A stretch of DNA of 39,385 bases. Origin: Bacteroidota bacterium. Lineage in GTDB: Bacteria; Bacteroidota; Bacteroidia; Chitinophagales; UBA8649. Positions 403 to 30,303 of the stretch are shown piece by piece (positions within the stretch are counted from its first letter, which is position 1; every line of letters starts with the position of its first letter). Both the position numbers and the translations under genes were made by a program. Location of the stretch: the NCBI GenBank assembly GCA_003447535.1, contig DLYY01000011.1, positions 1 to 39,385 on the forward strand. Reading direction: 5' to 3'. The notes under the pieces are model-generated. The model saw only the letters and a list, made by a program, of their open reading frames with translations, had not been told where the DNA came from and did not search any database.

Positions 403-492
403 GCCTTAAAAATAGGTCAATACGGGGAAAGACCTTGAATTGGTTGACCAAAAACTATAAACGGTTGTTAGAATTAACACTACATTTAATCT

Positions 493-1347
493 ATGTCGAA
501 TCCGTCTGATTACACCACGGTGATCAAGCCAAATGCGGGGTTGTTTAACCTAAAAATGCGAGAGGTTTGGGCATACAGAGATCTCGTCTTTATTTTAGCT
601 AGAAGAGACATTGTTGCCACATATAAACAGACCATTCTGGGGCCCCTTTGGTTTCTAATATCTCCCGTTTTAACCGTCATCGTTTATATGTTTGTGTTTG
701 GATCGATTGCGGGAATATCGACCGATGGAATGCCACAAGCTGTTTTTTACCTCGGGGGCATTACTCTTTGGAATTATTTCTCATCTTGTTTTACCGCCAC
801 GGCAAACACATTTACCACAAATGCCCAGATTTTCGGCAAAGTATATTTTCCAAGGATTGTTGCACCTATGGCGAATGTTTTGTCCAATATGGTAAAGCTT
901 TTTATCCAAATGCTTTTATTTATAGGTGTGCTGGCCTATTACCTCCTTCAAGATAATTCGGCAATTACCTTGGCTAACGAAATCTACCTCTTGCCTGTCC
1001 TTATACTTATGATGGCGGGTCTATCTCTTGGTGTTGGGATAGTTATATCCTCTTTGACAACTAAATACAGAGATTTTAAAAACTTCATAGGGTTTGGTGT
1101 CTCGCTTCTTATGTATGCGAGCCCAGTAATCTACCCCATTTCAGCAGTGAAAGACCAGGGCTATGGTGCCCTGTTGGCCTATAATCCTATTGCTCCAATT
1201 ATTGAGACCTTTCGATACATCTTTACTGGCCAGGGATGCCTTGATTGGAATGGTTTGCTTGTAAGTGGGCTTGCCACAATATGTATTCTTCTTTTCGGGC
1301 TTATATTGTTTAATCGAGTAGAACGAACCTTTATGGATACCGTATAG
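493..1347 (+). CDS. wzm: ABC-2 type polysaccharide/O-antigen export permease (Wzm/TagG/KpsM-like)
   Basis: 284 aa with about 6 hydrophobic segments. The N-terminus ...REVWAYRDLVFILARRDIVATYKQTILGPLWFLISP is typical of ABC-2 glycan export permeases. An ATPase partner starts 8 nt downstream. Confidence 0.85.
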   Translation: MSNPSDYTTVIKPNAGLFNLKMREVWAYRDLVFILARRDIVATYKQTILGPLWFLISPVLTVIVYMFVFGSIAGISTDGMPQAVFYLGGITLWNYFSSCFTATANTFTTNAQIFGKVYFPRIVAPMANVLSNMVKLFIQMLLFIGVLAYYLLQDNSAITLANEIYLLPVLILMMAGLSLGVGIVISSLTTKYRDFKNFIGFGVSLLMYASPVIYPISAVKDQGYGALLAYNPIAPIIETFRYIFTGQGCLDWNGLLVSGLATICILLFGLILFNRVERTFMDTV

Positions 1348-1355
1348 ATACGACT

Positions 1356-2657
1356 ATGTCAAACCCTGCGATCATATTAGAAAATATATCCAAGCGATAC
1401 CGATTGGGAATGGTGGGCTCAGGAACGCTAAGGGAAGACATCGCTGGCTGGTGGTATCAAGTGAGGGGTAAGGAAGACCCCTACTCAAGGATTGCTGAGA
1501 CTAATAATCGAGAACAAAGGGGAGCATCCAATTATGTTTGGGCATTAAAGGATATCAATTTTAGTATTGAGCAAGGCGAGGTGCTTGGTGTGATTGGAAA
1601 GAACGGGGCCGGAAAGTCTACCCTTTTAAAGCTTTTATCGCGAGTTACCGCACCTACAACCGGCAATATCAAGGCGCGTGGTCGAATTGCAAGCTTGCTA
1701 GAGGTTGGTACCGGTTTTCACCCCGAGCTTAGTGGCCGGGATAACATCTATTTGAATGGTGCTATTATGGGTATGAGGCGTTCAGAAATCAAAGCAAAGT
1801 TTGATGAAATTGTGGACTTTGCTGGCGTTGAACGATACATTGACACCCCCGTTAAGCGCTATTCCTCTGGAATGTATGTTCGGCTTGCCTTTGCCGTTGC
1901 TGCACACCTTGAGCCAGAAATTTTGATTGTAGATGAGGTTCTTGCAGTTGGAGATGCCCAATTTCAAAAGAAGGCCATTGGTAAAATGAAAGACGTGTCC
2001 ATGGGTCAAGGAAGGACTGTGCTTTTTGTAAGTCATAATATGGCCAGCATAGAAAACCTATGTAATTCCTGTGCCCTAATGCACCAGGGCAAAATCGAAA
2101 TGTTGAGTAGAACATCCGAGGTGGTCTCGCGCTACCTTAGAATAAACACCTCTGATGGAAATATTCCCCTATCAAAAGCACCAAGAGAAGAGGGTAATGG
2201 TCAGCTTTTTTTTTCTGACTGCAAAATATTGAATGCCACAAAGCAACGAACCCACAGCGTTTTGTGTGGAGAGCCGTTTCAAATCAGAGGGGTTATAGAT
2301 GTGGTTCAAAAAACTGTCGCTCCCAGCCTTCACATATCATTAGCTATATCTAACAAGGACGGACTTCAGCTGATACACCTATCTACAGACGAGGGGTTGA
2401 GTGGCAACGTGGCAATATCTCAAAGTGACCAACAGGTTAGGTTTTACTGTGATATACCTGGTTTAAATTTACCCCGTGGGGAATATTATATTACACTATT
2501 TGTAAGCGACGGTAGAACGGTGTTTGATCATGTGGAACATGGTGTTAAAATAAGTATTGAGGATGGGGACTTTTTTGGAAATGGAAAAGTAAAGGCTTCT
2601 AACCTTGGTCTAGTGCTTCAAAAAAGCACATGGTCAGTAGAAACCAGTGAAACTTAA
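1356..2657 (+). CDS. wzt: Polysaccharide ABC exporter ATP-binding protein with an extra C-terminal domain of about 170 aa (Wzt-like)
   Basis: Walker A GKNGAGKST, signature YSSGMYVRLAFA, Walker B ILIVDEVLAVGD, H-loop FVSHN. About 170 extra residues follow the NBD (CGEPFQIRGVID...YYITLFVSDG...), which looks like the beta-sandwich Wzt C-terminal glycan-binding domain. Confidence 0.9.
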   Translation: MSNPAIILENISKRYRLGMVGSGTLREDIAGWWYQVRGKEDPYSRIAETNNREQRGASNYVWALKDINFSIEQGEVLGVIGKNGAGKSTLLKLLSRVTAPTTGNIKARGRIASLLEVGTGFHPELSGRDNIYLNGAIMGMRRSEIKAKFDEIVDFAGVERYIDTPVKRYSSGMYVRLAFAVAAHLEPEILIVDEVLAVGDAQFQKKAIGKMKDVSMGQGRTVLFVSHNMASIENLCNSCALMHQGKIEMLSRTSEVVSRYLRINTSDGNIPLSKAPREEGNGQLFFSDCKILNATKQRTHSVLCGEPFQIRGVIDVVQKTVAPSLHISLAISNKDGLQLIHLSTDEGLSGNVAISQSDQQVRFYCDIPGLNLPRGEYYITLFVSDGRTVFDHVEHGVKISIEDGDFFGNGKVKASNLGLVLQKSTWSVETSET

Positions 2658-2675
2658 TCTATATATCCGAAGAGA

Positions 2676-4529
2676 ATGTGCGGTATTGGAGGAATGATTT
2701 TAAAAAGCGAAGAGGTTGCGCCTCATGCACTTGAAACCATGTGTGATGCTATGGCTCATCGTGGTCCAGATGGGAGAGGAATATATGCCAAAAACAACCT
2801 TGGGTTGGCTCATACACGTCTCTCAATAATTGATCTCGAGGGGGCCAAACAGCCCATGCACAGTTCCTGTGGGAAGTACATTATAACCTACAATGGAGAA
2901 TTATATAATTATAAATCTCTTCGTGAAGAACTTCAGGGGTTGGGGATAAAATTTTACTTAAACTCAGACACTGAGGTTGTGCTTTATGCCTACAAGGTGT
3001 GGGGGGAATCTTGCCTGACTAAATTTCGTGGTATGTTTTCCTTCGCCATAATTGACCATATCAAACAATTTGTGTTTTGTGCGCGCGATCATTTTGGAAT
3101 AAAACCATTTGTATACGTCGAAAACAAGCGGGGGTTTTTTTTCGGAAGCGAACTTCATGTATTCGTTCAGCAACCCCTGGTTTCATTAACAATTGATTTT
3201 TTTGCCTTGGACAAATATTTGTGGTTGGGGTATATACCAACCCCACTTACCATATACAAAGAAGCAAGAAAACTACCTCCAGGCCACAGCATTGTCGTGG
3301 ATTTTGAAGGAAAAGTCATTCGACAGCAAGAATATTTTTTTCCCAATGCCATTGAACAAGAAGAATCACACAGCGAAGGCGAGTGGGTAGAACAAATGGA
3401 GCGTGCAATAGAGGAAAGTGTTGCTGCCCACTGTCAAGCAGATGTGCCATTTGGTGCCTTTCTCAGTGGGGGCATTGACTCTACACTTATAAGTGGATAC
3501 ATGAAAAAGGTGAGCGGAATAAAGCAAACCTATACTATGGGGTTTGACAGCAATACTATGGACGAGACACCTTTTGCAAAAATTGCGGGAAAAACTCTCG
3601 GACTTAACCTCAACATTGAACGGGTTCCCAATGTTGATTTAGACCTTTTTGAGCGGGTGATTAGTCGCATGGATGAGCCCTTTGGGGACTCTTCTGTTGT
3701 GCCGACCTATCAAATATGTAACATTGCAAGAAAACATGCGCCTGTTGCCCTCTCGGGTGACGGGGGGGATGAGTTTTTTCTGGGATATCCGAGATATTAC
3801 CGCTGGGACGAAAAACTTAAGACAAGGTCGGGAGTTTCACGTTTTAAGGGGCTAATTCTTCCTTTGGCACATAAACTAAACCCCTCAAGATATTCTAGCC
3901 TATATCCAAAAAATACTCCTGCAGGCTATTTGGGGCTATTTGATTATCTCAAACCTGAGATTCGTGAAATCCTCTGGTCCTCAGAATATTCATCGTACAT
4001 GGACTCCTCTTTACCCTTTATTGAAGATGCCCACTACAGATCTCGCAAAATGGGTGTCCTAAACCAAGCTAAAACAATGGATACTAGGAGTTACCTCTGT
4101 GATGATATCTTAAAAAAGGTCGATTTGGCAAGCATGATGAACTCCCTGGAGGTTAGACCCCCCTTAATAGATGTTGGAATTCATAAACTTCTTCAGAAAA
4201 TGCCTCAAAGCATGCTTGTCGATACAGGAAAAGGCGGGTTAACCGGAAAACGGATATTAAAATTACTACTGCAAAAACACTTTAATCAAGAGTTTTTATA
4301 TCGGCGTAAAGCTGGCTTTGGACTTCCCCTTGATGAATGGTTTAGACAAGAAAATCCTATATATCGTCAAATTGAAGGAGAAATGCTATCCTCAAATTCT
4401 CCACTAGCGACCTACTTCGACCTGAAAGGTTTAAAACTGATACTTCAATCTCGAGATTATCCTCGCGCGACATCCATAAGTGGTCCTGTGTGGCTACTTT
4501 TTGTGTTACACACCTGGCTTGCTAAATGA
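2676..4529 (+). CDS. Asparagine synthase family glutamine amidotransferase, paralogue 1 (AsnB/WbpS-like)
   Basis: Starts MCGIGG (Ntn nucleophile Cys2). Contains HRGPD, YNGELYNY and the PP-loop FLSGGIDST, plus SLEVRPP near the C-terminus. 617 aa. Confidence 0.9.
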   Translation: MCGIGGMILKSEEVAPHALETMCDAMAHRGPDGRGIYAKNNLGLAHTRLSIIDLEGAKQPMHSSCGKYIITYNGELYNYKSLREELQGLGIKFYLNSDTEVVLYAYKVWGESCLTKFRGMFSFAIIDHIKQFVFCARDHFGIKPFVYVENKRGFFFGSELHVFVQQPLVSLTIDFFALDKYLWLGYIPTPLTIYKEARKLPPGHSIVVDFEGKVIRQQEYFFPNAIEQEESHSEGEWVEQMERAIEESVAAHCQADVPFGAFLSGGIDSTLISGYMKKVSGIKQTYTMGFDSNTMDETPFAKIAGKTLGLNLNIERVPNVDLDLFERVISRMDEPFGDSSVVPTYQICNIARKHAPVALSGDGGDEFFLGYPRYYRWDEKLKTRSGVSRFKGLILPLAHKLNPSRYSSLYPKNTPAGYLGLFDYLKPEIREILWSSEYSSYMDSSLPFIEDAHYRSRKMGVLNQAKTMDTRSYLCDDILKKVDLASMMNSLEVRPPLIDVGIHKLLQKMPQSMLVDTGKGGLTGKRILKLLLQKHFNQEFLYRRKAGFGLPLDEWFRQENPIYRQIEGEMLSSNSPLATYFDLKGLKLILQSRDYPRATSISGPVWLLFVLHTWLAK

Positions 4530-5647
4530 TGAATATTGTAATTCTTACCACATCCTACACCAAAGGGGGGGCAGAAAAACACGCCTTACTACTTGCAAGG
4601 TATCTTCAAAAAGAGACCAAACACAATGTGTCTTTCTGGGTATTTAGAAAAGGCAGCGGGGAATTAGAAGAGGAGCTGTCTCAATACCATATTCCCTCAG
4701 AAATAATTTCAAAAAACATCAGTAATAATAGGGCTATACTCCCAATCAAAACAATACGGGCCGGAATGGTCTTTCGCAGGCGGAGCATCAAAGTTGTAAT
4801 TAGTTTTAACCTCGAAGCCAATCACTTTGCGGCGAAAGTAAAAAAGTATGGTGGCTACTGTCTTGTGTGGTCTCAACAAACAAGCAACGACATACACATG
4901 CTTAATGCAACTAGCTATTCCTTTGTTTCTAATGCCAACCTTTATATCAGCAATTCCCAACATGCCGCTCAATATTTAATTGATGATTTTGGTGTTTCTC
5001 CTAGTAAAACTGTTTTTGTGGCCAATGGATTTGATGAAGAAAAAAATTATCCTGTCGATCAGCCGGTATTGGATGGTGCTATTGACTCAACGAAGTTTAA
5101 TGTGGTGATGGTCGCCCATGTAGAAGAGAGAAAAGATCATACGACCCTCCTAGATGCATGGGCACTTTTCATCAAAAAATTCCCTGAAGCCCACCTCTAT
5201 ATCGCCGGGAAAAACAACTCCACGTTTGGTAGAAACATCCAGGAGTATGCAAGGAGAGTTTGTGAGACACATACCGTATCGTTTTTAGGGGCTGTAGAAA
5301 ACATCCCCTCACTTTTAGATCAATGCTCTGCCTTTGCCTTTAGTTCAAATATAGAAGGCATGCCCAATGCCATTGTCGAAGCCATGTTTGCCAAATTACC
5401 TATCGTGGCTAATGACCTTGAGGGAAACCTGGAGGCCCTTGGTGCGCGAGCCATAGAAGAGCAAGTTTGTCCAAGTCGGGATGCTGAGCGTTTCGCCAAC
5501 CGCCTTTTGCAAATAGCAAAAGACCCACAACTAGCAAATCGGCTCGGTAAAGAAAATTATGCCTACGCCAAAAAGACATTTGGGATAAGTATCATGGGCG
5601 AGAAAACCATGGCGGCTATAAATAATCTACTTCCCCATGAAAAATAG
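4526..5647 (+). CDS. Glycosyltransferase, GT4 family (GT-B fold)
   Basis: N-terminal IVILTTSYTKGGAEKHALLLARYL. C-terminal EX7E-type motif SNIEGMPNAIVEAMFAKLPIV. ATGA overlap with the preceding amidotransferase. Confidence 0.85.
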   Translation: MMNIVILTTSYTKGGAEKHALLLARYLQKETKHNVSFWVFRKGSGELEEELSQYHIPSEIISKNISNNRAILPIKTIRAGMVFRRRSIKVVISFNLEANHFAAKVKKYGGYCLVWSQQTSNDIHMLNATSYSFVSNANLYISNSQHAAQYLIDDFGVSPSKTVFVANGFDEEKNYPVDQPVLDGAIDSTKFNVVMVAHVEERKDHTTLLDAWALFIKKFPEAHLYIAGKNNSTFGRNIQEYARRVCETHTVSFLGAVENIPSLLDQCSAFAFSSNIEGMPNAIVEAMFAKLPIVANDLEGNLEALGARAIEEQVCPSRDAERFANRLLQIAKDPQLANRLGKENYAYAKKTFGISIMGEKTMAAINNLLPHEK

Positions 5648-6503
5648 TCTTGTAATCATAGGCTGCCCACGCTCAGGGACCACCTATCTGCTTCGTCTTT
5701 TGGCATCTTGCCACACCTTAGGATATGTAAGCGCCGCCCAAAACACCGCACCCAACAAACTATTACGGTCTAGAGACTTAAGGGTATTTAATACCCCGCT
5801 ATTGGGGGGGATTCGATATGCCAAACGTCGCTACGAACATGCCCTTCCCGTAGAGTCTTGGGCTTTCTACAACAACTATTTGCCCGGTTTTCAGTGGAAG
5901 ATTGATCACGGGGGTGGGCCCAAAATAAATTATAAAACCGAAGAAATTGACGCCTTTAGACGTGCGGTTGACGGGGTGCTTAAAGAAAGCGGAAGACAGC
6001 GGTTTTTGTTTAAATACACGGATTTTTCTCGATTAGACCTGCTTTACCAGATTGACCCAACCTGTCAGGTTATTCACCTAACCCGACACCCTCTTTCTGT
6101 AATATTTTCGTATTCAAAGAAAATGGAACGGGGAGAATTTAATACCTGGAATGAACGAGAGGCCTGGTCTGCTTTGTGGGATAAAAAATTGTTCGCTATT
6201 TACCACGAATACAAAGAGGCGCTTTGTGAAAAGGCGCTCGCAGGTTGTCTGTGGGCTTTCTTTATAAGAAAAATTAAACAAGATATACGTGTGTGGAAGG
6301 GAAGGGCCGTCCAAACGTATGTTTATGAAGACCTGTTTGCATCCTACGCTCCAATTAAAGACTTGTTTAAAAATAACAACCTTACCTATAATCTAGGGGT
6401 TCAATCATTTCTAAGAAACAATAAACCTGTTGTCTATAACTATGATGAATCTTTAGAGAAGTATAGAGTCTTTGTGGATTCCTTAATCAATTACGTAGAA
6501 TAA
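5637..6503 (+). CDS. Sulfotransferase family protein (PAPS-dependent type)
   Basis: N-terminal VIIGCPRSGTTYLLRLL resembles the 5'-phosphosulfate-binding loop (PKxGTT-like). IHLTRHPLSVIFSYS resembles the 3'-phosphate-binding RxPxDxxxS region. 288 aa, no TM segment. Confidence 0.7.
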   Translation: MKNSLVIIGCPRSGTTYLLRLLASCHTLGYVSAAQNTAPNKLLRSRDLRVFNTPLLGGIRYAKRRYEHALPVESWAFYNNYLPGFQWKIDHGGGPKINYKTEEIDAFRRAVDGVLKESGRQRFLFKYTDFSRLDLLYQIDPTCQVIHLTRHPLSVIFSYSKKMERGEFNTWNEREAWSALWDKKLFAIYHEYKEALCEKALAGCLWAFFIRKIKQDIRVWKGRAVQTYVYEDLFASYAPIKDLFKNNNLTYNLGVQSFLRNNKPVVYNYDESLEKYRVFVDSLINYVE

Positions 6504-7606
6504 TGGCAAGGATAGCAATACTTCTTCCTTCTTTTACAGTTGGTGGTGCCGAGACGCAGGCCTTACTGCTTTCTGACTTTCTCATACATAGAGGACATGA
6601 TGTTATGCTCTTTAGCTGCACGCAAGGATCAAACTGCCTTGACAAGTCTCTCCTAAATACAGCGGTTGTTTGTAAAAGTCACCCTGTGCATTTTCAAAAC
6701 ATTCTCCACCTTAAGCCGAGGGCCCTAAGGAGCATACTTTCCCTAAGCAGAAAGCTAGTCAAGTATAAAATAAATGTGATTGTGCCCTTTACGCTGGTGC
6801 CCAACATTCTTGGAAATTTGGCGGCAAAATTTGCTGGTATCCGCCTTCGGGTTTGGAACCAACGGTCAGTTGATATTATAGATTATGGGCGTGGTGAGCA
6901 GCTTGCAAGGCGAATGACACACCAAATCATCGGCAATTCAGATTATGTGGTTGAAAAGCTCCAAGCGCGATGGGGTGGAACATTTAAAACTCCATTTCAA
7001 ACCATTTATAATGGACGACGGCCTGATCCAAAACCCACAGACCCACCCCCCTTATCATTAAACGAATCCCAAGACAACACTTTGTCTATTTTACACCTGG
7101 CAAGCTTCTTTGAAGAAAAAGATTTTACCACACTCATAATGTCCTTGAAAGTGGTCGTTGAGCGTGGTTTGAACGTCCATTTACACCTTGTGGGACGAAA
7201 TCCAGGTGGTATAACATGGCCGGCTTGCCGGGAGTTGGTCTCTGAGCTTGCCCTGGGAAGTAATGTCTTCTTTCATGGGGCTATCAATTCTCCTCAAAGC
7301 CATATACGAAACGCTGACTTGTGTATTCTATCTACCAAATCTGAAGGACTTTCGAATACATTAATAGAATATGCACTAGCTAAAAAACCGACGCTTACCA
7401 CAAACATTCCCCCTAACGTTGAGTTGTTTGGGTTTCACCACAAGGGCTTCTTTGAAGTTGGCAATCACATCCAATTGGCAAATCTTATTGAGGCGCAAGC
7501 ACAAGACAGGCGTAATCAGAATTTTGTGCCTACCTTAAACGTGCCTATTGACACGGCCGTAATGGGTGATAAATTTCACCAAATCATTTTAGCTCACTTG
7601 TCATGA
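6503..7606 (+). CDS. Glycosyltransferase, GT4 family
   Basis: IAILLPSFTVGGAETQALLLSDFL at the N-terminus. STKSEGLSNTLIEYALAKKPTL is the EX7E-type motif. TAATG junction with the upstream gene. Confidence 0.8.
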   Translation: MARIAILLPSFTVGGAETQALLLSDFLIHRGHDVMLFSCTQGSNCLDKSLLNTAVVCKSHPVHFQNILHLKPRALRSILSLSRKLVKYKINVIVPFTLVPNILGNLAAKFAGIRLRVWNQRSVDIIDYGRGEQLARRMTHQIIGNSDYVVEKLQARWGGTFKTPFQTIYNGRRPDPKPTDPPPLSLNESQDNTLSILHLASFFEEKDFTTLIMSLKVVVERGLNVHLHLVGRNPGGITWPACRELVSELALGSNVFFHGAINSPQSHIRNADLCILSTKSEGLSNTLIEYALAKKPTLTTNIPPNVELFGFHHKGFFEVGNHIQLANLIEAQAQDRRNQNFVPTLNVPIDTAVMGDKFHQIILAHLS

Positions 7607-8424
7607 AAGATCTTCCAAAAATATCCTTCATTATTCCTTTTTATAACGCAGGAGACACGTTGAAAGAGACCTTATCTTCTGTTGTTGCTCTTGAATATCC
7701 AACTATTGAGATAATTGTGGTTAATGATGGGTCAACGTGTGATACTTCGGTTCAAACCCTTCGAGACGCACAGGCCCATTTTGAGCTTACCATTATAAAT
7801 ATTGATAACAGTGGTCCCTCAATTGCAAGAAACATCGGGATTGAGAGGTCAACGGGTAAATTTATAATACCACTTGATGCAGACGACCTTATAGAGGGTG
7901 ATTGCCATCTTCAAGCACTTAAAATCCTGGAAGAGGACCCCCGTGTTGGAGCTGTTGTTGGGAGAACTAGGTTTTTTGGAAAAAAATCAGGAAGTCATCT
8001 GTCGATAAATAAAGGCATTGATGCTCAACTCATTTATAACCAATTTCCTGTCACTGCTATTATAAGAAAAAGTATGATAGATGATGTGGGTCTTTACGAT
8101 CCTGAGTTAAGCAAGCCCGGGTTGGAAGACTGGGAGTTTTGGATTCGCGTAGTAGCCTCGAAGACCTGGAATATTACATGTATCAACAGCCCTTTTCTTG
8201 CTGTGCGTGTTTCAGAGCACTCTCGAACCATTCTTTCGGCTAATCCAAATAAAAGGGATATTGACCGATATATCCATAAAAAGCATGCTATCCTTTACGC
8301 CCAACAGCACGAGAGGTTATTTTATGCTTTGCAGGGCCTCTATAAGGAACGAAGCTACAAGATAGGGAGGGCGATTCTTGCGCCTTTGCGTTGGATAAAG
8401 CACTCATTTTATAAACCCTCCTGA
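7603..8424 (+). CDS. Glycosyltransferase, GT2 family (GT-A fold)
   Basis: ISFIIPFYNAGDTLKETLSSV...IIVVNDGSTCDT...PLDADDL, the classic GT2 N-terminal signature with a DxD. ATGA overlap with the upstream gene. Confidence 0.85.
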   Translation: MKDLPKISFIIPFYNAGDTLKETLSSVVALEYPTIEIIVVNDGSTCDTSVQTLRDAQAHFELTIINIDNSGPSIARNIGIERSTGKFIIPLDADDLIEGDCHLQALKILEEDPRVGAVVGRTRFFGKKSGSHLSINKGIDAQLIYNQFPVTAIIRKSMIDDVGLYDPELSKPGLEDWEFWIRVVASKTWNITCINSPFLAVRVSEHSRTILSANPNKRDIDRYIHKKHAILYAQQHERLFYALQGLYKERSYKIGRAILAPLRWIKHSFYKPS

Positions 8425-8439
8425 TTTGCTCCTTATACC

Positions 8440-10333: not shown

Positions 10334-10346
10334 CCACTTACCGACT

Positions 10347-11480: not shown

Positions 11481-11481
11481 C

Positions 11482-12681: not shown

Positions 12682-12721
12682 GACTACCTTTAAATTAAGT
12701 ACAATTCCCTAGTAGACCCCT

Positions 12722-15858: not shown

Positions 15859-15864
15859 TATTCC

Positions 15865-18672: not shown

Positions 18673-18688
18673 AACTTGGTGCTAACCA

Positions 18689-19255: not shown

Positions 19256-19286
19256 GTCAACTATGAAGCAAAGCAACAAAAAAGTA

Positions 19287-21740: not shown

Positions 21741-21762
21741 AATCCTTTTATTTTACAATCGT

Positions 21763-23634
21763 ATGTGCGGTATCGTTGGTTGGATTGGAAATAATGCTCC
21801 GTTAAGCAGCGAGGAGTACCTCGTTGCTGTAAACTCGTTGAAACATCGTGGACCTGACCACGGCAATCACGTTGTCTTCGGTAACAACGACTTTCTCGGC
21901 CATAGGAGGCTTGCAGTTGTTGATCTTGACGCTAGGTCAAACCAACCCATGAAAAGCCCGTGTGGGCGCTACTGGCTTGTGTATAATGGGGAGTTATTTA
22001 ACCATGAAACATTAAGGCAATATTTATTAAACCGTGGTGTGGGCTTTCAAACATCGTCTGACACCGAAGTGCTTCTTCAGGGCCTTATAACTTATGGTGA
22101 AGATTTTATTGAAAAGGTTAATGGTTTTTTTGCCTTTGCTTTTTATGATACCCTAGCCCAAGAAGTACTTCTTGGTCGCGACCGAATGGGAATTAAACCC
22201 CTCTATATCTTTCATTCAGATGATGGACTTCGTTTTAGTTCAGAACTCAAAGCACTTAAAAGCCTTCGCGTACCTTTTCAAATCAACCCACAGGCGCTGA
22301 ATGAATACCTCTTATACAGTTATGTTCCCGAGCCGCTCTGTTTAGTTAATGGAGTTGTTAAGCTCGCTCCAGGCACAACATTACGCTATTCAGCGAAGAA
22401 GGGTGCAATACAAAATCGCTATTATAGCATGGACCAAAGTGCGAGCCAACAGAAGCTTTCATTTACTGAGGCTGCCATAAAGTGTAAAGAAAAAATAGAA
22501 CACGCCGTGGGGCTTCGAATGGTGGCAGACGTACCCATCGGGTCGTTTCTAAGCGGTGGAATTGATTCGTCGATCATTGCTTCAATTGCCCAAAGGCTTC
22601 ATGGTGGCATACAAACCTATTCCATCGGGTTTGAGGGGCGGAACTTTTTTGACGAAACAAACGCAGCTAGACGGACCGCTGTCGCCCTTGGCACAAAACA
22701 CGAAAACATTGTATTATCCGATGACAAAATCTTTAATCAATTAGACCTCTTTTTTGATGCCATGGACGAGCCCTTTGCGGACTCGTCGGCAATCAATGTA
22801 TTTCATTTATGTAAACAGGTTAAAAAACACATTACTGTGGCGTTGAGCGGTGATGGGGCCGATGAAGTTTTTGGGGGGTATAACAAGCATCGTGCTCTCC
22901 TCATGAGCCTAAACCCCGTTTATAGAACCTTGCTCACCGCAATACGCCCCCTCTTGGGGCCAGGGGTGTCCAGCCGTGGCTCTATGCTTCGAAACAAGGC
23001 CAGACAACTTCATCGACTTAGTCTTGGTGTCAGTAAAGGCTCTAGGGCGCGATATGCCTATTGGGCGGCGTTTTCAAACCAAAATGATATACATCGTGCA
23101 CTCATAAATCCGTGGCAAGGAAACCCCTCTTTTTATGACCTCTTGCCTAAAAAAATAGAATGTCTTAATGACTTTCTGTATGCTGATCAACGCATTATCC
23201 TGCCGTCTGATATGCTTGCAAAAGTCGACAAAATGTCAATGGCCTCAAGTCTTGAAGTGCGGGTTCCTTTTTTAGACCATCATGTTGTTGGTCTTGCGAA
23301 CTCTCTCCCATCCTCATTCAAAATAAAGGGTTCCGTAACGAAAAGACTTCTTCGCAGAGGATTTGAAAGTGATTTGCCTTCAGAGGTTTTTCGTCGGCCG
23401 AAACATGGGTTTGAGGTTCCACTAGAAGAATGGACAAGAACTGTTTTTTCTGATAGAACCGAACAATTCATACAGAAAGACTTTCTTGATGCACAAGGTC
23501 TATTTTTACACAAACCATTGCGGCAAATCTTTGAAACTAACCAAAAAGAAGGCCAGGCAGAATCAAGCGCTTTTCTTTATTCCTTCCTAGTGTTTCAAGA
23601 GTGGTGGGCGCGTATAAATTTAATCGATGGGTAA
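21763..23634 (+). CDS. Asparagine synthase family glutamine amidotransferase, paralogue 3
   Basis: Starts MCGIVG (Cys2). Contains HRGPD, YNGELFNH, PP-loop FLSGGIDSS and SLEVRVPFLDH. 623 aa. Confidence 0.9.
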   Translation: MCGIVGWIGNNAPLSSEEYLVAVNSLKHRGPDHGNHVVFGNNDFLGHRRLAVVDLDARSNQPMKSPCGRYWLVYNGELFNHETLRQYLLNRGVGFQTSSDTEVLLQGLITYGEDFIEKVNGFFAFAFYDTLAQEVLLGRDRMGIKPLYIFHSDDGLRFSSELKALKSLRVPFQINPQALNEYLLYSYVPEPLCLVNGVVKLAPGTTLRYSAKKGAIQNRYYSMDQSASQQKLSFTEAAIKCKEKIEHAVGLRMVADVPIGSFLSGGIDSSIIASIAQRLHGGIQTYSIGFEGRNFFDETNAARRTAVALGTKHENIVLSDDKIFNQLDLFFDAMDEPFADSSAINVFHLCKQVKKHITVALSGDGADEVFGGYNKHRALLMSLNPVYRTLLTAIRPLLGPGVSSRGSMLRNKARQLHRLSLGVSKGSRARYAYWAAFSNQNDIHRALINPWQGNPSFYDLLPKKIECLNDFLYADQRIILPSDMLAKVDKMSMASSLEVRVPFLDHHVVGLANSLPSSFKIKGSVTKRLLRRGFESDLPSEVFRRPKHGFEVPLEEWTRTVFSDRTEQFIQKDFLDAQGLFLHKPLRQIFETNQKEGQAESSAFLYSFLVFQEWWARINLIDG

Positions 23635-24820
23635 TCAAAAAATTCGTGTTTTGCGCATAGCTAATCGGCTCAACATTGGGGGTCCAACGTATAACGTATG
23701 CTACCTAACAAAGCATCTTGGTGACTCCTATGAAACCATGTTGGTTGTTGGGCAGGAAGACTCTTCAGAAGGCAGTTCATTGTACATTGCAAAGTCAATG
23801 GGGCTTTCCCCAAGGCTTATCCCTTCCATGCGGCGCTCCATTAATTTGAGTCGAGATCGGAAAGCATACCGAGAAGTCCGCAAGATTATTCGTGAGTTTA
23901 AGCCTCATATAGTGCACACTCATGCAGCGAAAGCTGGAGCAATAGGGCGCTATGCCGCCTATAAAGAAAAGGTTCCTGTTGTCCTTCACACTTACCATGG
24001 GCATGTTTTCCATTCCTATTTTAACAAGATAAAAACAAGTGTTTTCTTGGCCATTGAGCGTTTCTTGGCACGCAGAAGTAGTGTCCTTATTGCAATCAGC
24101 CCTTTGCAGAAAAAAGAACTTTCAGAAGACTACAAAATTGCAAGCAACTCTAAGTTTCGCACAGTACCGCTAGGTTTTGACTTAGAGCGATTTTTCCAAA
24201 ACATGGACAACAAGCGTAATGCATTTAGGGAATATTGGGGCCTTGGTGATGATGTATTAGCTATTGCCCTTGTCGGGCGGCTTGTTCCTATAAAAAATCA
24301 CCCTTTCTTTTTAGAGTCAATATCTTATGTAAAAGGCAATACAAAGAAAAAATTTCAGGTCTTTCTCGTTGGGGATGGTGAAGAGAAGAATGATTTAATG
24401 ACCCTGTGTGATAAATTAAACCTGTCCCATAATTTTGTGCCTGATTCAAGTGTTGATGTTGTTTTTACCTCCTGGATTTCGGAGGTAGACCAAGTTTTTG
24501 CCGGTATTGATCTAGTATGTCTCTCTTCGAAAAACGAGGGTACACCAGTCAGCCTTATTGAGGCTGGTTGTGCTGGCAAACCATTTATCTCAACAGATGT
24601 GGGTGGTATTCGTGATCTTTTAATAGACCCCGAACAAGGTATCGTTACTCCTCAAAAAAATATTGAAGCATTTAGAAGTGCACTTCTAAATTGGGTTATA
24701 ACAGCTAATCCTGGGCAAGGTTTAGATCTTGATGTTCGTAAGAACCTTTCAAAAAGGTATAGTTATAAACAACTATGCTTTGAAATGTCAAAAGTCTATG
24801 AAGAATTGCTTCCTTCATAA
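23627..24820 (+). CDS. Glycosyltransferase, GT4 family
   Basis: IRVLRIANRLNIGGPTYNV at the N-terminus. SSKNEGTPVSLIEAGCAGKPFISTDVGGIRDLL is the EX7E motif. 8-nt overlap with the preceding amidotransferase. Confidence 0.85.
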   Translation: MGNQKIRVLRIANRLNIGGPTYNVCYLTKHLGDSYETMLVVGQEDSSEGSSLYIAKSMGLSPRLIPSMRRSINLSRDRKAYREVRKIIREFKPHIVHTHAAKAGAIGRYAAYKEKVPVVLHTYHGHVFHSYFNKIKTSVFLAIERFLARRSSVLIAISPLQKKELSEDYKIASNSKFRTVPLGFDLERFFQNMDNKRNAFREYWGLGDDVLAIALVGRLVPIKNHPFFLESISYVKGNTKKKFQVFLVGDGEEKNDLMTLCDKLNLSHNFVPDSSVDVVFTSWISEVDQVFAGIDLVCLSSKNEGTPVSLIEAGCAGKPFISTDVGGIRDLLIDPEQGIVTPQKNIEAFRSALLNWVITANPGQGLDLDVRKNLSKRYSYKQLCFEMSKVYEELLPS

Positions 24821-24842
24821 TCAATATGTTGCTTTATATTCA

Positions 24843-25616
24843 ATGACTGTGAGAAGCCTTCAAATTATAAGTATTATCCTGTTGTTTAGTTCGTGCAAGC
24901 TGCTCGTTCCTGACAGAATGTTTAGAAAGGGAGATTTTCAGCAATTTATAAGCGAAAAAGACCAAATTGAAGACTATTCCATTCGGCCCGGTGATGTTAT
25001 TCGTCTGCAGCTATATACCCAAGATGGGTTCCCTATTCTAGATGCCCTTAAAATGGAAACCTCTCAGGGAGCACAAGGTTCGCGATCTGTGCAAATTGGC
25101 AACCTTGTGTCTTTTCTTGTCACCCAAGATGGATATGTTGACCTTCCAATTTTTGGAGAAACTTATGTTCAGGGGATGAAGGATCAAGAGCTTGAAAGTT
25201 TTTTGGAACAACGGGGTACAGAGTTATTTGTAAATCCGTTTGCAATAGTCTCTGTGTTGGGGCGGCGCTGTATGGTCTTTCGCGGAGGAAAAGCTTCTAT
25301 TATTTCCCTAGAGACTAGACCAACCACTCTTCTCGAGGTTATTGCACGCAGCGGGGGCTTAAATCAATATGATCGAGCCGACAAGATTCAAATCATTCGA
25401 GGAGATTTAAAAGATCCCCTCTTATATGAAATAAACCTTTCTGAAATATCTGGACTAAAAGATGGGGGGCTAATTGTACAGAGCAATGACATTATTTACA
25501 TAAGCTCTCGTCCTCGAGTAATAGCAAGAGCTAGTAATGAAATATCCACGGTTACCTCGTTGCTTATATCTTCATCATCGTTGTTAACAACCATATTGCT
25601 CCTTCGCCAACAATAA
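24843..25616 (+). CDS. wza: Outer-membrane polysaccharide export lipoprotein (Wza/OPX family)
   Basis: The ATG at 24843 gives MTVRSLQIISIILLFSSC, a signal peptide plus lipobox Cys; the track ORF starts upstream at 24729 inside the previous gene. Poly_export-type YSIRPGDVIRLQLY, followed by SLBB-like ...VIARSGGL...IQIIRGD... Confidence 0.8.
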   Translation: MTVRSLQIISIILLFSSCKLLVPDRMFRKGDFQQFISEKDQIEDYSIRPGDVIRLQLYTQDGFPILDALKMETSQGAQGSRSVQIGNLVSFLVTQDGYVDLPIFGETYVQGMKDQELESFLEQRGTELFVNPFAIVSVLGRRCMVFRGGKASIISLETRPTTLLEVIARSGGLNQYDRADKIQIIRGDLKDPLLYEINLSEISGLKDGGLIVQSNDIIYISSRPRVIARASNEISTVTSLLISSSSLLTTILLLRQQ

Positions 25617-25632
25617 ACCAGATTCCTAGCGC

Positions 25633-28077
25633 GTGTCCGAAAACAAAAAACAAACATCCGCGATATTTTATGATCGCTTTAATGCTGGACTTCTAGTACA
25701 TGTCTTGCGCAAGTCGTTTAAATGGTTCTTTTTGTTTATGCTTCTATCGTCTGGGGTTGCGCACATTTTTCTTCACTTTGCAACCAGAGTCTATGATTCA
25801 AAAGGAGTAATAATTCATATTGGAGGGGAGCAAAAACAAAACTTATTGGGCTTTGATAGAGATTTTCAAAAACAATTCACAAACACTGACTTTCAACAAG
25901 ATATTAGGGTTCTTACGTCTCCACTTGTTATAAACAACGCATATTCAGACAAGGGGTTAAATCTTCTGTTTTACGACGTTGGTAATTTCCGATCTCTCGA
26001 AATCTACCCAAACCCATATTTTTCAGTCGACAGCTTTTATCAGGCACCTGAATTGACAAAGATTAATATTGATTATCATATGTTTTTAAGTCGGAAGAAA
26101 GACAGTATCCGGCTTGAATACATCTATAAAGGAAGTACTTGGGGTGGACACTTAAAACCAGGAAAGCCATTTATTGATGAAAATATATTTATATCAATAT
26201 CCAATTTTGATGAGTCGTTATTGACCGATGAATTCGAAGGTGAAAAAAACATTTTCTTTAACGTTTATGATAATAATCGCCTCGCCGATGAAATGTTATC
26301 AAACATAAAAATTGAGCCCAATAAAGAAACATTTTCTGTTGCGATCACCGGAAAACATCCCAGCAAAGCGAAAGCTTTAGTCATGGTAGATTTACTCATA
26401 GAGTCATTCTTGAATTTTCATTTGTATCAAAAAACGGAAAGTATTAAACAATCGATATCCTTTCTTGATGAGCAAATTGATTCTATAAAACCGCTATATG
26501 ATGAGGCACTTGTCGCTGTTCGAAATGCCGAAGCGCAAAAGGGGTACCGTAACATTGAGGCACTGGGTGGCGGGCTCTATGCAGATGTTAAAAATCTACA
26601 ACAAAAACTTGTGCGTCTTGATTATCTAATAAGTGTTCTTGGGTGGTTCGCTGTGATGGTTGAACAAGAAGAAGATCTCAGTCTTGCGAGTACTCAATTA
26701 TCAGGAGCTGATTTTGAAGGAATCATTAATGGCCTGTCTGTGAGTGAGATTTTAAATCTTGAGGCTGAAAAAGAAAAAGCCCTAATGCAGGTTACTCCCG
26801 AACATCCCGCTATTGTACTCATAGAAAGAAACCTTGATAAAGCACGCGTCACGCTTGTGGCTCAAGTAAGAATAAACATTGAGCGATATCAACAGGAAAG
26901 GCAATTAATGATAGATGAAATCAATAAAATTCTTGAAGAATTAGATGTGCTACCATTGTTTGAAGCCGAATATCTGAGACTAAAAAGAGACTATGAGACC
27001 AAGGCGATGTTTTACAACAACCTTATTGAGAGGAAGTCTTCTTTCTCATTATCCAAAGCGGGTATTGTAAGTGACTACACTATTCTAGAGAACCCAAAAA
27101 TTGCAAAAAATCATATAAGCCCAAATGATAGCTTTATTCGATTTGTTGGGTTGGCGATTGGTGCTATTCTTTCACTTATTTTGGTGGTCTTTCGATATAT
27201 AACACACAAAGAAATTATCAATATTGAAGACGTTACTTCCCAAACTGAAACAGCCCTTCTTGGGGTTATACAACGCTATTCAGAGAAACTTCCTATGTCA
27301 TCAATCGTTGTGACCAATCGTCCTAAAAGTGGTATTTCTGAATCGTTTAGGGGCGTTCGAAGCAATCTAGAGTTTTTAGCAGCGGAGAAGAATTTTCGTT
27401 CTATTGCAGTTACTTCAACGATTCCTGGAGAAGGAAAAACATTTGTAGCTATCAATCTTGCTGCCATTATTGCCATGCAGGGCAAGCGTGTGCTATTAGT
27501 GGATGTAGATTTAAGGAAGCCCCGTGTACACAAGATCTTTAACCTTCCTAACTCAGCTGGAATGAGCACTCTCCTTAATAAGCGCTCAATAAAAGAGGAT
27601 GTTACTTTCTCTACGTCAGAGGAAAACCTCTGGGCAATTCCCGCAGGACCTATTCCGCCCAACCCCTCTGAGCTTATTGGTGGAGATTCCTTTGTCAACT
27701 TTATTGAAGAAATAAAAACTTCATTTGATGTTCTCGTTTTCGACACCCCTCCTATTGGGTTGGTCACAGACTCCATACCTGTAATAAGCAAGGTAAATAA
27801 TCCTATCTATGTGATGAGGGCAGATTATTCTCACAGATCATTCGTAGGACACATTGAGTCTACTAAAGAAAACCTTCAGATTCCTAATCTATCCATCATA
27901 GTGAATGACTATGGACGGGGCGTTTCTGGATCTTATTACAACTATGGATACGGGTACGGATATGGATATGGATATGGATATGGGTATGGGTATGGGTATG
28001 GGTATTACTCCGATCCCGACGAAACCAGGGAAAACGAGCGCACCGGTTTCTTTTCGCGGTTTCGAAAAAACTCTTAA
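25633..28077 (+). CDS. wzc: Polysaccharide co-polymerase / BY-type tyrosine autokinase (Wzc, PCP-2a architecture)
   Basis: GTG start. TM1 (FKWFFLFMLLSSGVAHIF) is followed by a periplasmic coiled-coil region of about 450 aa, then TM2 (FVGLAIGAILSLILVVF). Kinase domain has Walker A TIPGEGKT, Walker A' LLVDVDLRKP and Walker B VLVFDTPP. C-terminal Tyr cluster YYNYGYGYGYGYGYGYGYGYGYGYY. Confidence 0.9.
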   Translation: MSENKKQTSAIFYDRFNAGLLVHVLRKSFKWFFLFMLLSSGVAHIFLHFATRVYDSKGVIIHIGGEQKQNLLGFDRDFQKQFTNTDFQQDIRVLTSPLVINNAYSDKGLNLLFYDVGNFRSLEIYPNPYFSVDSFYQAPELTKINIDYHMFLSRKKDSIRLEYIYKGSTWGGHLKPGKPFIDENIFISISNFDESLLTDEFEGEKNIFFNVYDNNRLADEMLSNIKIEPNKETFSVAITGKHPSKAKALVMVDLLIESFLNFHLYQKTESIKQSISFLDEQIDSIKPLYDEALVAVRNAEAQKGYRNIEALGGGLYADVKNLQQKLVRLDYLISVLGWFAVMVEQEEDLSLASTQLSGADFEGIINGLSVSEILNLEAEKEKALMQVTPEHPAIVLIERNLDKARVTLVAQVRINIERYQQERQLMIDEINKILEELDVLPLFEAEYLRLKRDYETKAMFYNNLIERKSSFSLSKAGIVSDYTILENPKIAKNHISPNDSFIRFVGLAIGAILSLILVVFRYITHKEIINIEDVTSQTETALLGVIQRYSEKLPMSSIVVTNRPKSGISESFRGVRSNLEFLAAEKNFRSIAVTSTIPGEGKTFVAINLAAIIAMQGKRVLLVDVDLRKPRVHKIFNLPNSAGMSTLLNKRSIKEDVTFSTSEENLWAIPAGPIPPNPSELIGGDSFVNFIEEIKTSFDVLVFDTPPIGLVTDSIPVISKVNNPIYVMRADYSHRSFVGHIESTKENLQIPNLSIIVNDYGRGVSGSYYNYGYGYGYGYGYGYGYGYGYGYYSDPDETRENERTGFFSRFRKNS
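27943..28008 (+). repeat. In-frame hexanucleotide tandem repeat (TAY-GGN)x10 plus TAT-TAC, encoding the (YG)10YY tail of Wzc
   Basis: Read directly: tat gga tac ggg tac gga (tat gga)x3 (tat ggg)x4 tat tac. The perfect sub-arrays are (tatgga)3 and (tatggg)4. Confidence 0.95.
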
Positions 28078-28097
28078 ATCTCTTTAGTTTCAAGGTT

Positions 28098-29177
28098 ATG
28101 CAGCAACAAATATATTGGGTCCTTTTGTTTGTAGCTATCTTTCTTTTTGGTTCTGCCACTCATGGACTATTTCTCAGGTTTAGTCGGGGGCTTGGTGTGA
28201 GACAACCCGCTGCCCTTGGACAAGAACGATGGAGCGCAAACGTTAAACCTTCTGTTGGCGGACTAACCTTCTTTATTTGCTTTAGCATATCAATCAGCCT
28301 TTTACCAATAGATGGTCTCAATGTCTTAAGTGAGCTAAAGCGGACTTCTTTCACCGCAGCTTGTTGTCTTGGTTTCTTACTTGGCTTAGCAGACGACACC
28401 TATGATACTGTACCTATTTTTAAGTTCATCGGTCAGGTGTTGTGTGGGCTAATCTTGTGCTTAGGGGGTATTGTCATTGAGTTCAGTAGTATTGAGATTA
28501 TAGATTATTCCCTGACCACATTTTGGGTAATTGCCATTATGAACTCCATTAACATGTTGGATAACATGGATGCAATAACCACCTCTGTTTCAATTGCTGT
28601 TTTAATCGTTGCTATTATAATGGCTTTTCTCATTGTTTCGCCTAGCCTTTGGGTTTATCCTTGTATAATTGGGGTGTTGGCTAGCCTCATCGCCTTTTTA
28701 CCGTTTAATTGGAATCCTGCCAAGATATACATGGGGGATACAGGGTCCCAGTTCCTTGGTGTGTTTTTAGCCGGTTTGGGGGTTGAATTATTTTGGAACC
28801 ACAGGGTCAATTATGGAGGAATTTTTCAAGTACAGCAATTCATGATTCCCGTGCTTGTATTTGCGGTTCCCATAATGGATACGATTACTGTTTTTTTACG
28901 TCGCTTACTTCTAAAAACATCTCCATTTGTTGGGGGTAGAGATCATTTGGCTCACCATTTAGTGTATTGCGGTTTTTCTGAGCAGCGAGTTGCTGTTGTT
29001 TTGTTTTTGCTATCCATTGTGTTTGGCATTCTTTCCCTCAGTTTTTTCTTTGAGCAATACCCATTTAACTTATCCCTTTTGGGTTGGTCATTTGTTTTGC
29101 TTAATGTTTTTCTTATTGTTTTTTTCGTTTTACAAATACTGTATAATCGGGGAGCCGAGAAAAAGAGCGAGAGCTAA
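28098..29177 (+). CDS. Polyprenyl-phosphate HexNAc-1-phosphate transferase (MraY/WecA PNPT family), initiating enzyme
   Basis: About 10-11 TM segments. Contains LGLADDTYD (DDxxD), NSINMLDNMDAI (variant of NAxNxxDGxDG) and GGRDHLAHHL (DxxHHH-type motif). Confidence 0.85.
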   Translation: MQQQIYWVLLFVAIFLFGSATHGLFLRFSRGLGVRQPAALGQERWSANVKPSVGGLTFFICFSISISLLPIDGLNVLSELKRTSFTAACCLGFLLGLADDTYDTVPIFKFIGQVLCGLILCLGGIVIEFSSIEIIDYSLTTFWVIAIMNSINMLDNMDAITTSVSIAVLIVAIIMAFLIVSPSLWVYPCIIGVLASLIAFLPFNWNPAKIYMGDTGSQFLGVFLAGLGVELFWNHRVNYGGIFQVQQFMIPVLVFAVPIMDTITVFLRRLLLKTSPFVGGRDHLAHHLVYCGFSEQRVAVVLFLLSIVFGILSLSFFFEQYPFNLSLLGWSFVLLNVFLIVFFVLQILYNRGAEKKSES

Positions 29178-29552: not shown

Positions 29553-29561
29553 ACTAATTTG

Positions 29562-29569
29562 TATATTTG
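29562..29569 (+). promoter_or_regulatory. Candidate Bacteroidota sigma-A -7 element (TAnnTTTG) for the tRNA-Leu gene
   Basis: TATATTTG ends 8 nt upstream of the first tRNA nucleotide. I found no convincing -33 TTTG at canonical spacing. Confidence 0.25.
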
Positions 29570-29576
29570 TTTACCT

Positions 29577-29660: not shown

Positions 29661-29679
29661 CACTCTTTTCCTCGGTTGA

Positions 29680-30237: not shown

Positions 30238-30303
30238 AGGATTACGAATATAATTTAAGCTGCAATCTTGCTCGATTGGCTATGGAATATGCATCTTTGA
30301 TTA

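Follow-up and report, generated by a model that had tools for sequence, protein, structure and literature searches.

Current classification schemes, which automated capsule-typing tools also use, tie polysaccharide co-polymerases of type 2a (PCP-2a) to Wzx/Wzy pathways and those of type 3 (PCP-3) to ATP-binding cassette (ABC) exporters. We explored a glycan locus that occupies positions 493-29177 of a 39,385-nucleotide stretch of a marine metagenome contig (DLYY01000011.1; the whole stretch is referred to below as the window) and that carries the ABC exporter genes wzm and wzt at its 5' end and wza-, wzc- and wecA-type genes at its 3' end, with no flippase gene, the wzc product being a PCP-2a with a bacterial tyrosine (BY) kinase domain. 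An earlier annotation made from the sequence (the original prediction) had noticed this mixture on the premise that PCP-3 proteins accompany ABC pathways and PCP-2a proteins accompany Wzy pathways, a textbook pairing that is correct according to the literature (PMC12220298). The combination observed here is real and more than chance, and probably represents a putative non-textbook export route of an uncultured marine bacterium of the Saprospirales/Chitinophagales type. The evidence leans towards a recurrent composite architecture, although it is not of a kind that could prove functional coupling.

Among the described systems, the ABC-dependent O-polysaccharide pathway (Escherichia coli O8/O9a, Klebsiella) shares with this locus Wzm, a Wzt with a Wzt_C domain, priming by a WecA-family enzyme and cytoplasmic glycosyltransferases (GTs) encoded beside wzt, as well as the covariation of the Wzt C-terminal domain with the neighbouring biosynthesis genes. 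Unlike this pathway, the locus showed no WbdD-type kinase/methyltransferase terminator and no WaaL ligase (no open reading frame (ORF) of the window matched Wzy_C; the rest of the genome was not searched), and it adds a protein of the outer-membrane polysaccharide export (OPX) type, a full PCP-2a kinase and a large conserved biosynthesis block; O-antigen loci need neither an OPX protein nor a PCP-2a kinase. Group 2/3 kps capsule loci (KpsMT, the PCP-3 KpsE and the OPX KpsD) have in common with it the association of an ABC exporter with a PCP as well as an OPX protein, and a layout in which conserved export genes surround a laterally exchanged, serotype-specific middle. In contrast to kps loci, the PCP is here a kinase-bearing PCP-2a, the ATPase is of the Wzt type with a binding domain and not KpsT, priming is assigned to a WecA-family enzyme, and the KpsC/KpsS machinery of the 3-deoxy-D-manno-octulosonic acid (Kdo) linker is absent, with no match to PCP-3, KpsC/S (Capsule_synth) or Wzy_C among the scanned window ORFs. 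Since priming is of the WecA type, undecaprenyl diphosphate is the probable carrier, in place of a phosphatidylglycerol-Kdo anchor. Finally, group 1 Wzx/Wzy loci (Wza-Wzb-Wzc) share a Wza-type lipoprotein OPX adjoining a Wzc that has a tyrosine cluster and Walker A, A' and B motifs, both encoded beside the initiating transferase, whereas the present locus has no Wzx, no recognisable Wzy and no Wzb phosphatase (none of the window ORFs scanned matched LMW-PTP or PHP, and the search did not extend to the rest of the genome); a canonical Bacteroidota example of group 1, L024, is described below.

Judged by profile matches, the locus also loosely resembles the exosortase-linked (XrtA/PEP-CTERM) exopolysaccharide (EPS) loci. 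It contains an exosortase-family gene, its three AsnB-type amidotransferases all match an XrtA-system amidotransferase model best, and the OPX protein, the kinase and chain-length parts of Wzc and several GTs also match XrtA models, as the best hit only for the GT at 15865-17100. However, all the XrtA-system models were matched far below their cut-offs (for instance, 419-470 bits versus 816.9 for TIGR03108), the exosortase is a 207-amino-acid (aa) mini form closest to exosortase X, and, to our knowledge, XrtA loci are not known for Wzm/Wzt. Two further precedents bring the two kinds of genes together. In Vibrio cholerae NRT36S, wzm/wzt coexist with wza/wzc and a wzm mutant loses its capsule (PMC1847822), but this region also contains wzx and wzy; in Synechocystis, cross-talk between the two pathways has been proposed (PMC7885315; PMC4594306), but the cyanobacterial EPS genes are scattered and not clustered. 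Neither case is a flippase-less compact cluster. In a literature whose coverage was incomplete, we came across no Bacteroidota cluster described as compact, lacking a flippase and combining Wzm/Wzt with Wzc/Wza.

The locus is bordered by purN (1-426, minus strand) on the left and by crcB, a polysaccharide deacetylase gene and gltX (29202-31839) on the right. Between these borders the coding share was 99.4% and the largest intergenic gap 40 bp, which leaves no space for an unseen gene. The block is thus almost gap-free, as first described, yet it is not a single operon, since strand switches divide it into at least seven transcription units. Profile searches supported the assignments made at both ends by the original prediction: Wzm matched ABC2_membrane and Wzt matched ABC_tran and Wzt_C above cut-off, and the 3' OPX lipoprotein, the 814-aa PCP-2a autokinase and the WecA-like transferase were all backed by profile matches. 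Its statement that no ORF resembles a MOP/PST (Wzx) flippase also stood, with no MOP/Polysacc_synt family match in any window ORF in a locus that is coding almost throughout. The only polytopic membrane proteins of the block are Wzm, the mini exosortase, a 454-aa protein and WecA. The remaining gene content comprises three AsnB-type amidotransferases and a sulfotransferase, which had been overlooked together with the exosortase-family gene, about 11 GT-B/GT-A glycosyltransferases, a GFO/IDH/MocA oxidoreductase and a hexapeptide acetyltransferase.

The 5' operon (493-11480) starts with wzm (493-1347, plus strand), which encodes an ABC-2 permease of the O-polysaccharide exporter type (ABC2_membrane, 64 bits; best NCBIfam match Wzm/RfbD, ahead of KpsM, both below cut-off). 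It is followed by wzt (1356-2657, plus strand), the product of which combines an ABC ATPase (about residues 1-262; ABC_tran, 81 bits) with a carbohydrate-binding C-terminal domain (about residues 263-433; Wzt_C, 47.3 bits for a Pfam cut-off of 30.4 bits). Comparison within the clade identified this operon as a swappable cassette, in which wzm and the wzt ATPase half are followed by a variable wzt C-domain, GTs and a sulfotransferase. In two close relatives covering the 5' side (L003 and L004), purN-wzm-wzt was kept, with 82-90% identity for Wzm and 83-87% for the Wzt ATPase half; the Wzt C-domain was unrelated (24-28% identity), about 9 kb of quite different GTs and sulfotransferases followed wzt, and homology resumed only at the GT4 gene matching window positions 10296-11480. 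In a more distant relative with the same cassette (L014, contiguous from wzt to the exosortase gene), identity to the window was 94% for the ATPase half and 86% for the C-domain. The Wzt C-domain therefore covaries with the cassette, diverging when the cassette differs and being kept when it is kept, as would be expected if the product of the cassette were the cargo of Wzm/Wzt. Moreover, when L014 8985-17797 was compared with window 1356-10333, the cassette (from wzt to the gene at 9416) was 75-91% identical, whereas the conserved-block proteins of L014 were 59-71% identical; being closer than the backbone, the cassette must have moved laterally between lineages together with the Wzt C-domain.

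Conversely, the remainder of the locus (11482-29177, referred to as the conserved block) was syntenic in every related locus covering it, at 59-92% aa identity. Four species-level relatives (L005-L008) had the same order through wecA to crcB and gltX, with 67-92% aa identity, the comparison covering from 11482 in L007 and L008 and from 12722 in L005 and L006. Locus boundaries in relatives, which the original prediction had named as a check on its claim, thus revealed a 5' cassette that swaps and a 3' block that is conserved, the two halves being adjacent, between purN and crcB/gltX, in all clade members that allowed the junction to be inspected. The layout is kps-like: conserved wzm and wzt ATPase half, variable cassette, and conserved block ending in wza-wzc-wecA. 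Two independent assemblies of the same species, one represented by a 101-kb contig from Tara Oceans and the other by a 148-kb contig, encode an identical Wzt protein and have the same gene order, and the four closest genomic relatives were bins labelled Saprospirales, Bacteroidetes or Chitinophagales. Since the window comes from a metagenome assembly, the arrangement might have arisen through chimeric assembly or through a single chance rearrangement confined to one contig. This is highly improbable, since the gene order is shared by the two independent assemblies and L014 and each flank is conserved in several species-level relatives; the chimera itself is excluded by the 101-kb and 148-kb assemblies and L014.

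The export genes of the conserved block belong to a unit on the plus strand that begins with the third AsnB-type amidotransferase gene (21763-23634; Asn_synthase, 295 bits; 71-85% identity in L005-L008) and a GT4 gene (23627-24820; profile match; 74-85% identity in L005-L008). The OPX gene (24729-25616; Poly_export, 39 bits, plus SLBB) encodes a Wza-type lipoprotein with a conserved lipobox (LLFSSC) after an internal methionine at about 24840, which is the probable true start, and with a hydrophobic C-terminal helix. These two features place it among the short OPX proteins that have a C-terminal helix, a class known mainly from Bacteroidetes (PMC9601211). The next gene (25633-28077) encodes the 814-aa Wzc, a PCP-2a with Wzz, GNVR and P-loop domains that scored 152.9 against the BY-kinase model TIGR01007 (cut-off 108) and is the sole Wzz-domain protein in the window. 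Its kinase motifs are a P-loop (PGEGKT), a Walker A' (VLLVDVDLR, residue 620) and a Walker B (VLVFDTPP, residue 700), and its tail (27930-28010) contains 15 tyrosines among the last 70 residues, in a perfect (GY)n repeat. Wzc was 75-77% identical in L005-L008, and the (GY)n tail is conserved in proteins of Saprospirales type (L005-L008), of a Chitinophagaceae bacterium (L016) and of Pontibacter (L020). A search with full-length Wzc returned only 11 homologues, probably because the low-complexity tail dominated the word filter, and was of no use for finding related loci. The last gene (28098-29177) encodes a WecA/MraY-family polyprenyl-phosphate N-acetylhexosamine (HexNAc)-1-phosphate transferase (Glycos_transf_4, 91 bits; best NCBIfam match WecA, below cut-off; 86-92% identity in L005-L008). 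This is the only initiating enzyme of the locus, located in the wza-wzc unit, with none in the wzm-wzt operon.

The original prediction had proposed a possible Wzy-like protein in the middle of the locus, a label that the analysis did not support. The corresponding 454-aa membrane protein (20376-21740, minus strand) matched DUF2142 with 26 bits, below cut-off, and is a member of a family that is large and unannotated (3849 clusters at E ≤ 0.001), in which Pfam matches among 46 members were all weak (five DUF2142, one PMT_2 and one Wzy_C_2). Modelled with AlphaFold from the family alignment, the protein had a predicted local distance difference test (pLDDT) score of 89 and a predicted template modelling (pTM) score of 0.92. 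In fold searches, all the matches of meaningful probability were GT-C enzymes (DPY19, ALG12, ArnT, STT3, AftA and ALG9/ALG3), with TM-scores of at most 0.43 and weak E-values; these enzymes use polyprenyl-phosphate sugar donors. No MOP (MATE/MurJ), WaaL or Wzy chain was present among the top 50 structural matches, and a sequence-profile search of the family against the PDB gave chance hits only. A divergent Wzx was thereby ruled out, the model being confident and MATE/MurJ absent from the top 50. We therefore treat the protein, on the strength of this model, as a GT-C-fold membrane glycosyltransferase, neither a flippase nor a recognisable Wzy, with some room left for a polymerase or ligase of a novel type.

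Wzt homologues sharing about 52-56% identity were very common beyond the clade, in Flavobacteriia, Chitinophagia, Sphingobacteriia and Cytophagia, and six wzt neighbourhoods (±10 kb each) were sampled. Two of them reproduced the pairing in other orders. In the Chitinophagaceae bacterium IBVUCB1 (L016), a divergent wza lies upstream of a same-strand series made of wzc (814 aa, full PCP-2a), asnB, a GT4 gene, sugar-nucleotide genes, wzm and wzt, followed by three further asnB genes with GTs. In Pontibacter sp. 13R65 (L020/L023), wza, wzc (789 aa, full PCP-2a), two sugar-nucleotide genes, wzm and wzt lie on one strand and are followed by 13 ORFs with GT hits (one weak) around a membrane protein of 461 aa that matches O-ag_pol_Wzy weakly over the full length, then by ugd. 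In both organisms wzc and wzm-wzt were 3-6 kb apart on the same strand, and no MOP family was recorded in 21 kb (IBVUCB1) or 30 kb (Pontibacter), the unannotated proteins that were re-scanned not being MOP either. The four other neighbourhoods (L015, Formosa; L019, a Sphingobacteriales bin; contig L021; L022, Aegicerativicinus) had no wza or wzc within 10 kb. In addition, a locus picked through its (GY)n-tailed Wzc without reference to Wzt (L024) proved to be canonical, its cluster encoding a MatE-like protein of 515 aa as well as a Wzy_C protein and a transferase of the WbaP type. In Bacteroidota, the Wza/Wzc module thus appears to be combined with inner-membrane routes of both kinds.

The window and the Pontibacter cluster both combine wzm-wzt, wza-wzc and one unassigned polytopic enzyme with no flippase, and a full BY-kinase with a tyrosine tail is retained. 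These features would fit a scheme in which Wzm/Wzt replaced Wzx and flipped undecaprenyl-linked blocks, which would be joined, extended or attached in the periplasm under control of the Wzc kinase and exported by Wza; the periplasmic enzyme would be the GT-C protein here and the weakly Wzy-like protein in Pontibacter, with a possible involvement of the mini exosortase. In known systems, a BY-kinase of this type regulates periplasmic polymerisation (PMC12220298). We nevertheless regard this replacement as unlikely. No homology can be detected between the GT-C family and the Pontibacter protein (homology between the 454-aa protein and the Pontibacter protein was ruled out at an hhalign probability of 0.1%), the structural matches of the former use polyprenyl-phosphate monosaccharide donors and are not block polymerases, and IBVUCB1 showed no unassigned polytopic membrane enzyme within 21 kb. 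Wzt has, moreover, a C-terminal binding domain, which in characterised systems (E. coli O9a) marks the export of finished, capped chains. Were the replacement true across a broad set of Bacteroidota, it would amount to a fourth assembly logic, mixing the ABC- and Wzy-dependent schemes.

The reading that we favour is a single composite pathway, to which we give roughly an even chance of being correct, in which Wzm/Wzt exports an undecaprenyl-linked glycan and Wzc/Wza take the role of KpsE/KpsD. It is favoured because Wzm/Wzt is the only inner-membrane exporter in the locus, because the only initiating enzyme sits in the wza-wzc unit, because the pairing recurs, tighter, in two other orders, and because the layout mirrors that of kps loci, in which the conserved flanking genes also make a conserved lipid-proximal linker. 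In such a composite pathway, the WecA-family enzyme would prime undecaprenyl phosphate with HexNAc-phosphate, and the conserved GT-B enzymes, amidotransferases and sugar-modifying enzymes would make a conserved proximal part, to which the GTs, the amidotransferase and the sulfotransferase of the cassette would add a variable distal part in the cytoplasm, giving a single product. The Wzt C-domain would then read a cassette-specific feature of the finished chain, which Wzm/Wzt would carry across the inner membrane. We infer a hand-over from Wzm/Wzt to Wzc/Wza at this point, with a Wzc octamer, in place of the kinase-less KpsE, and the short OPX protein passing the chain through the periplasm and the outer membrane; the GT-C protein would probably add or transfer a sugar on the periplasmic side.

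Several observations weigh against a composite pathway. The strand switches, with at least seven units, exclude co-transcription of wzm-wzt and wza-wzc; four of the six sampled outside-clade wzt neighbourhoods lack wza and wzc within 10 kb; and the window showed neither a Wzb phosphatase nor a WaaL ligase. The presence of a (GY)n Wzc in the canonical L024 indicates that Wzc proteins of this type are not confined to ABC systems. The same locus shows that precomputed Pfam labels can be missing for divergent flippases, which weakens the absence of MOP proteins for the outside loci and not for the window, since every window ORF was examined. The conserved block encodes six GT-B enzymes and a GT-C enzyme and could thus make a glycan of its own, and lateral exchange of the 5' operon as a unit is also how a self-contained O-antigen operon would behave. 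Finally, glycan genes are often scattered in Bacteroidetes genomes (PMC3684754), which makes a flippase encoded elsewhere plausible.

Consistently with these observations, the locus might hold two adjacent but separate pathways, a possibility to which we assign less weight but which stays a serious one. The operon at 493-11480 would then direct a variable, ABC-exported O-antigen-like chain, which WecA would prime and a WaaL encoded at another site would join to lipid A-core, while 11482-29177 would direct a conserved exopolysaccharide or capsule exported through Wzc/Wza, the flippase and perhaps the polymerase of which would lie elsewhere in the genome. The co-directional 5' operon is self-contained save for priming and is swapped as a unit between lineages, and the 3' block, conserved at 59-92%, has its own GTs and sugar-modifying enzymes; part of this block (the GT-C, GT-B and GT4 genes and asnB) recurs in locus L017, with no wzm/wzt visible in 13 kb. 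Many wzm-wzt clusters without nearby wza/wzc and the scattering of Bacteroidetes glycan genes (PMC3684754) point in the same direction, and V. cholerae NRT36S, with lipopolysaccharide and capsule genes in one region, offers a precedent (PMC1847822). A modular 5' part and a conserved 3' part indeed fit two pathways as well as a kps-like single locus. Against two pathways, the conserved block has no recognisable Wzy in addition to having no Wzx, the 454-aa protein having a GT-C fold; Pontibacter and IBVUCB1 have wzc and wzm-wzt on the same strand, 3-6 kb apart, with a single GT run; adjacency is kept in every clade member that could be checked; and no WaaL was seen in the window. Of the two options left by the original prediction, a hybrid route or two fused loci, chance fusion is therefore disfavoured by adjacency and recurrence, while two neighbouring pathways still fit.

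If Wzm/Wzt does feed Wzc/Wza, different inner-membrane routes would be able to exchange their export module for the periplasm and outer membrane, and the role of tyrosine phosphorylation would need to be explained without Wzy-dependent polymerisation. In genome surveys, marine and soil Bacteroidota loci of this kind would be assigned to the wrong type or divided into two. The predicted polymers, sulfated, amidated and variable between strains by cassette exchange, would bear on marine carbon cycling, on recognition by phages and grazers, and on the sources of sulfated bacterial polysaccharides. Pontibacter sp. 13R65 and Chitinophagaceae IBVUCB1, which have compact clusters in deposited genomes not labelled as metagenome bins, may be culturable test organisms.

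Downstream of wzt, the cassette encodes on the plus strand a first AsnB-type glutamine amidotransferase (2676-4529; Asn_synthase and GATase_7, TIGR01536 above cut-off; best hit the XrtA/PEP-CTERM amidotransferase model, below its cut-off; 91% identity in L014), which probably amidates a uronic acid. It is followed by a GT4 enzyme (4526-5647; Glycos_transf_1 and Glyco_transf_4; 84% identity in L014, not present in L003 and L004), a sulfotransferase (5637-6503; Sulfotransfer_3, 49 bits; 84% in L014), another GT4 enzyme (6503-7606; profile match; 79% in L014), two GT2 enzymes (7603-8424, Glycos_transf_2, 99.7 bits, 84% in L014; 8440-9435, Glycos_transf_2, 67.8 bits, 79% in L014) and a weak GT-B-like protein (9416-10333; Glycos_transf_1, 21 bits, below cut-off; 75% in L014). 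The last gene of the wzm operon, a GT4 gene (10296-11480, plus strand; Glycos_transf_1, 119 bits), probably starts at 10347, giving the 377 aa that are called in L001 and L002. It exists in two allele classes (70-78% identity in L003, L004 and L013; 44-51% in L009-L012 and L014) and thus belongs to the variable part.

Sulfotransferases of differing Pfam families were present in other variable cassettes (L003 11356-12497, L004 11256-11951 and L015 11439-12122), directly after wzt in these three loci and as the third gene after wzt in the window. Such marine Bacteroidota cassettes suggest sulfated polysaccharides; sulfate is possibly the terminal mark read by the Wzt C-domain, the cassette sulfotransferase being a candidate terminator. 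In L003, an extra group of genes (sulfotransferase, FdtA-like isomerase, acetyltransferase, DegT aminotransferase and GT2) was also found between purH and purN (4016-8473), so that the variable region of this genome crosses the housekeeping boundary.

The conserved block opens with a GT4 gene (11482-12681, minus strand; profile match; 60-82% identity in L007-L014), followed on the plus strand by a GT4-like gene (12722-14023; weak Glyco_transf_4; 59-87% in relatives), the second AsnB-type amidotransferase gene (14023-15858; Asn_synthase, 310 bits; 65-85% in relatives and 46% in the distant L017) and a GT4 gene (15865-17100; profile match; 69-84% in relatives) with PEP-CTERM/XrtA glycosyltransferase stp3 as its best NCBIfam match, far below cut-off. 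About 1 kb separates asnB-2 from this GT4 gene in L005-L008, L010 and L011, and in L007 the spacer encodes a 328-aa NAD-dependent epimerase/dehydratase (15879-16865); the spacer is missing in L014 and in the window, where the gap (15858-15865) is only 6 bp. Three genes on the minus strand follow: a GFO/IDH/MocA sugar oxidoreductase (17090-18145; GFO_IDH_MocA, 54 bits), a hexapeptide-repeat sugar N-acetyltransferase (18088-18672; Hexapep; NeuD/PglB/VioB-type, 86.7 bits, below cut-off) and the mini exosortase-family membrane protein (18689-19312). A GT-B gene (19245-20381, plus strand; Glyco_trans_1_4), with 44% identity to a gene beside the GT-C homologue in L017, precedes the gene of the 454-aa protein.

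The three AsnB paralogues (2676-4529, 14023-15858 and 21763-23634) share 31-35% mutual identity. Other Bacteroidota also have asnB-type genes beside wzt (L016 has four, L019 and L021 have one each), which suggests that amidated uronic acids are a common feature of such glycans.

The mini exosortase matched TIGR04178 with 39.8 bits (cut-off 23) and exosortase X best (48.6 bits, below cut-off), and was 68-92% identical in relatives. Its motifs HCVG, NWFR and SHSYTY line up with the Cys, Arg and His positions of an exosortase of L022. In this locus, from Aegicerativicinus sediminis, a 177-aa exosortase and a 158-aa partner are encoded directly upstream of wzm-wzt (8129-9135), and exosortases may be linked to ABC-type glycan loci in Bacteroidota. 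A 236-aa neighbour of the L017 homologue was considered as an exosortase and ruled out, having no similarity and a weak transglutaminase hit.

An Rfam scan of the window gave no match, and a promoter/terminator scan gave counts not exceeding the shuffled expectation with a sigma-70 consensus that is unsuited to Bacteroidota. Searches of RNA and DNA sequencing runs found the locus in DNA metagenome runs only. Upstream of the block lie genes for PorP/SprF, rodA, a PBP2-type penicillin-binding protein (PBP_dimer and Transpeptidase), mreC, mreB, purH and purN. Just past crcB, the polysaccharide deacetylase gene (29680-30237, minus strand; 185 aa), 73-86% identical in L005-L008, may be functionally part of the glycan locus. 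Further downstream, a 195-aa ORF (33295-33882, minus strand) matched only positions 15-133 of the 346-position tryptophan 2,3-dioxygenase profile and may be a short form or a truncated gene. A 1049-aa ORF (34230-37379, plus strand) is without a match in either Pfam or NCBIfam; its N-terminal part contains membrane helices, and it also has a long acidic stretch rich in Glu and Gln. GC skew climbs strongly where this ORF lies, reaching 0.33 at 35-36 kb.

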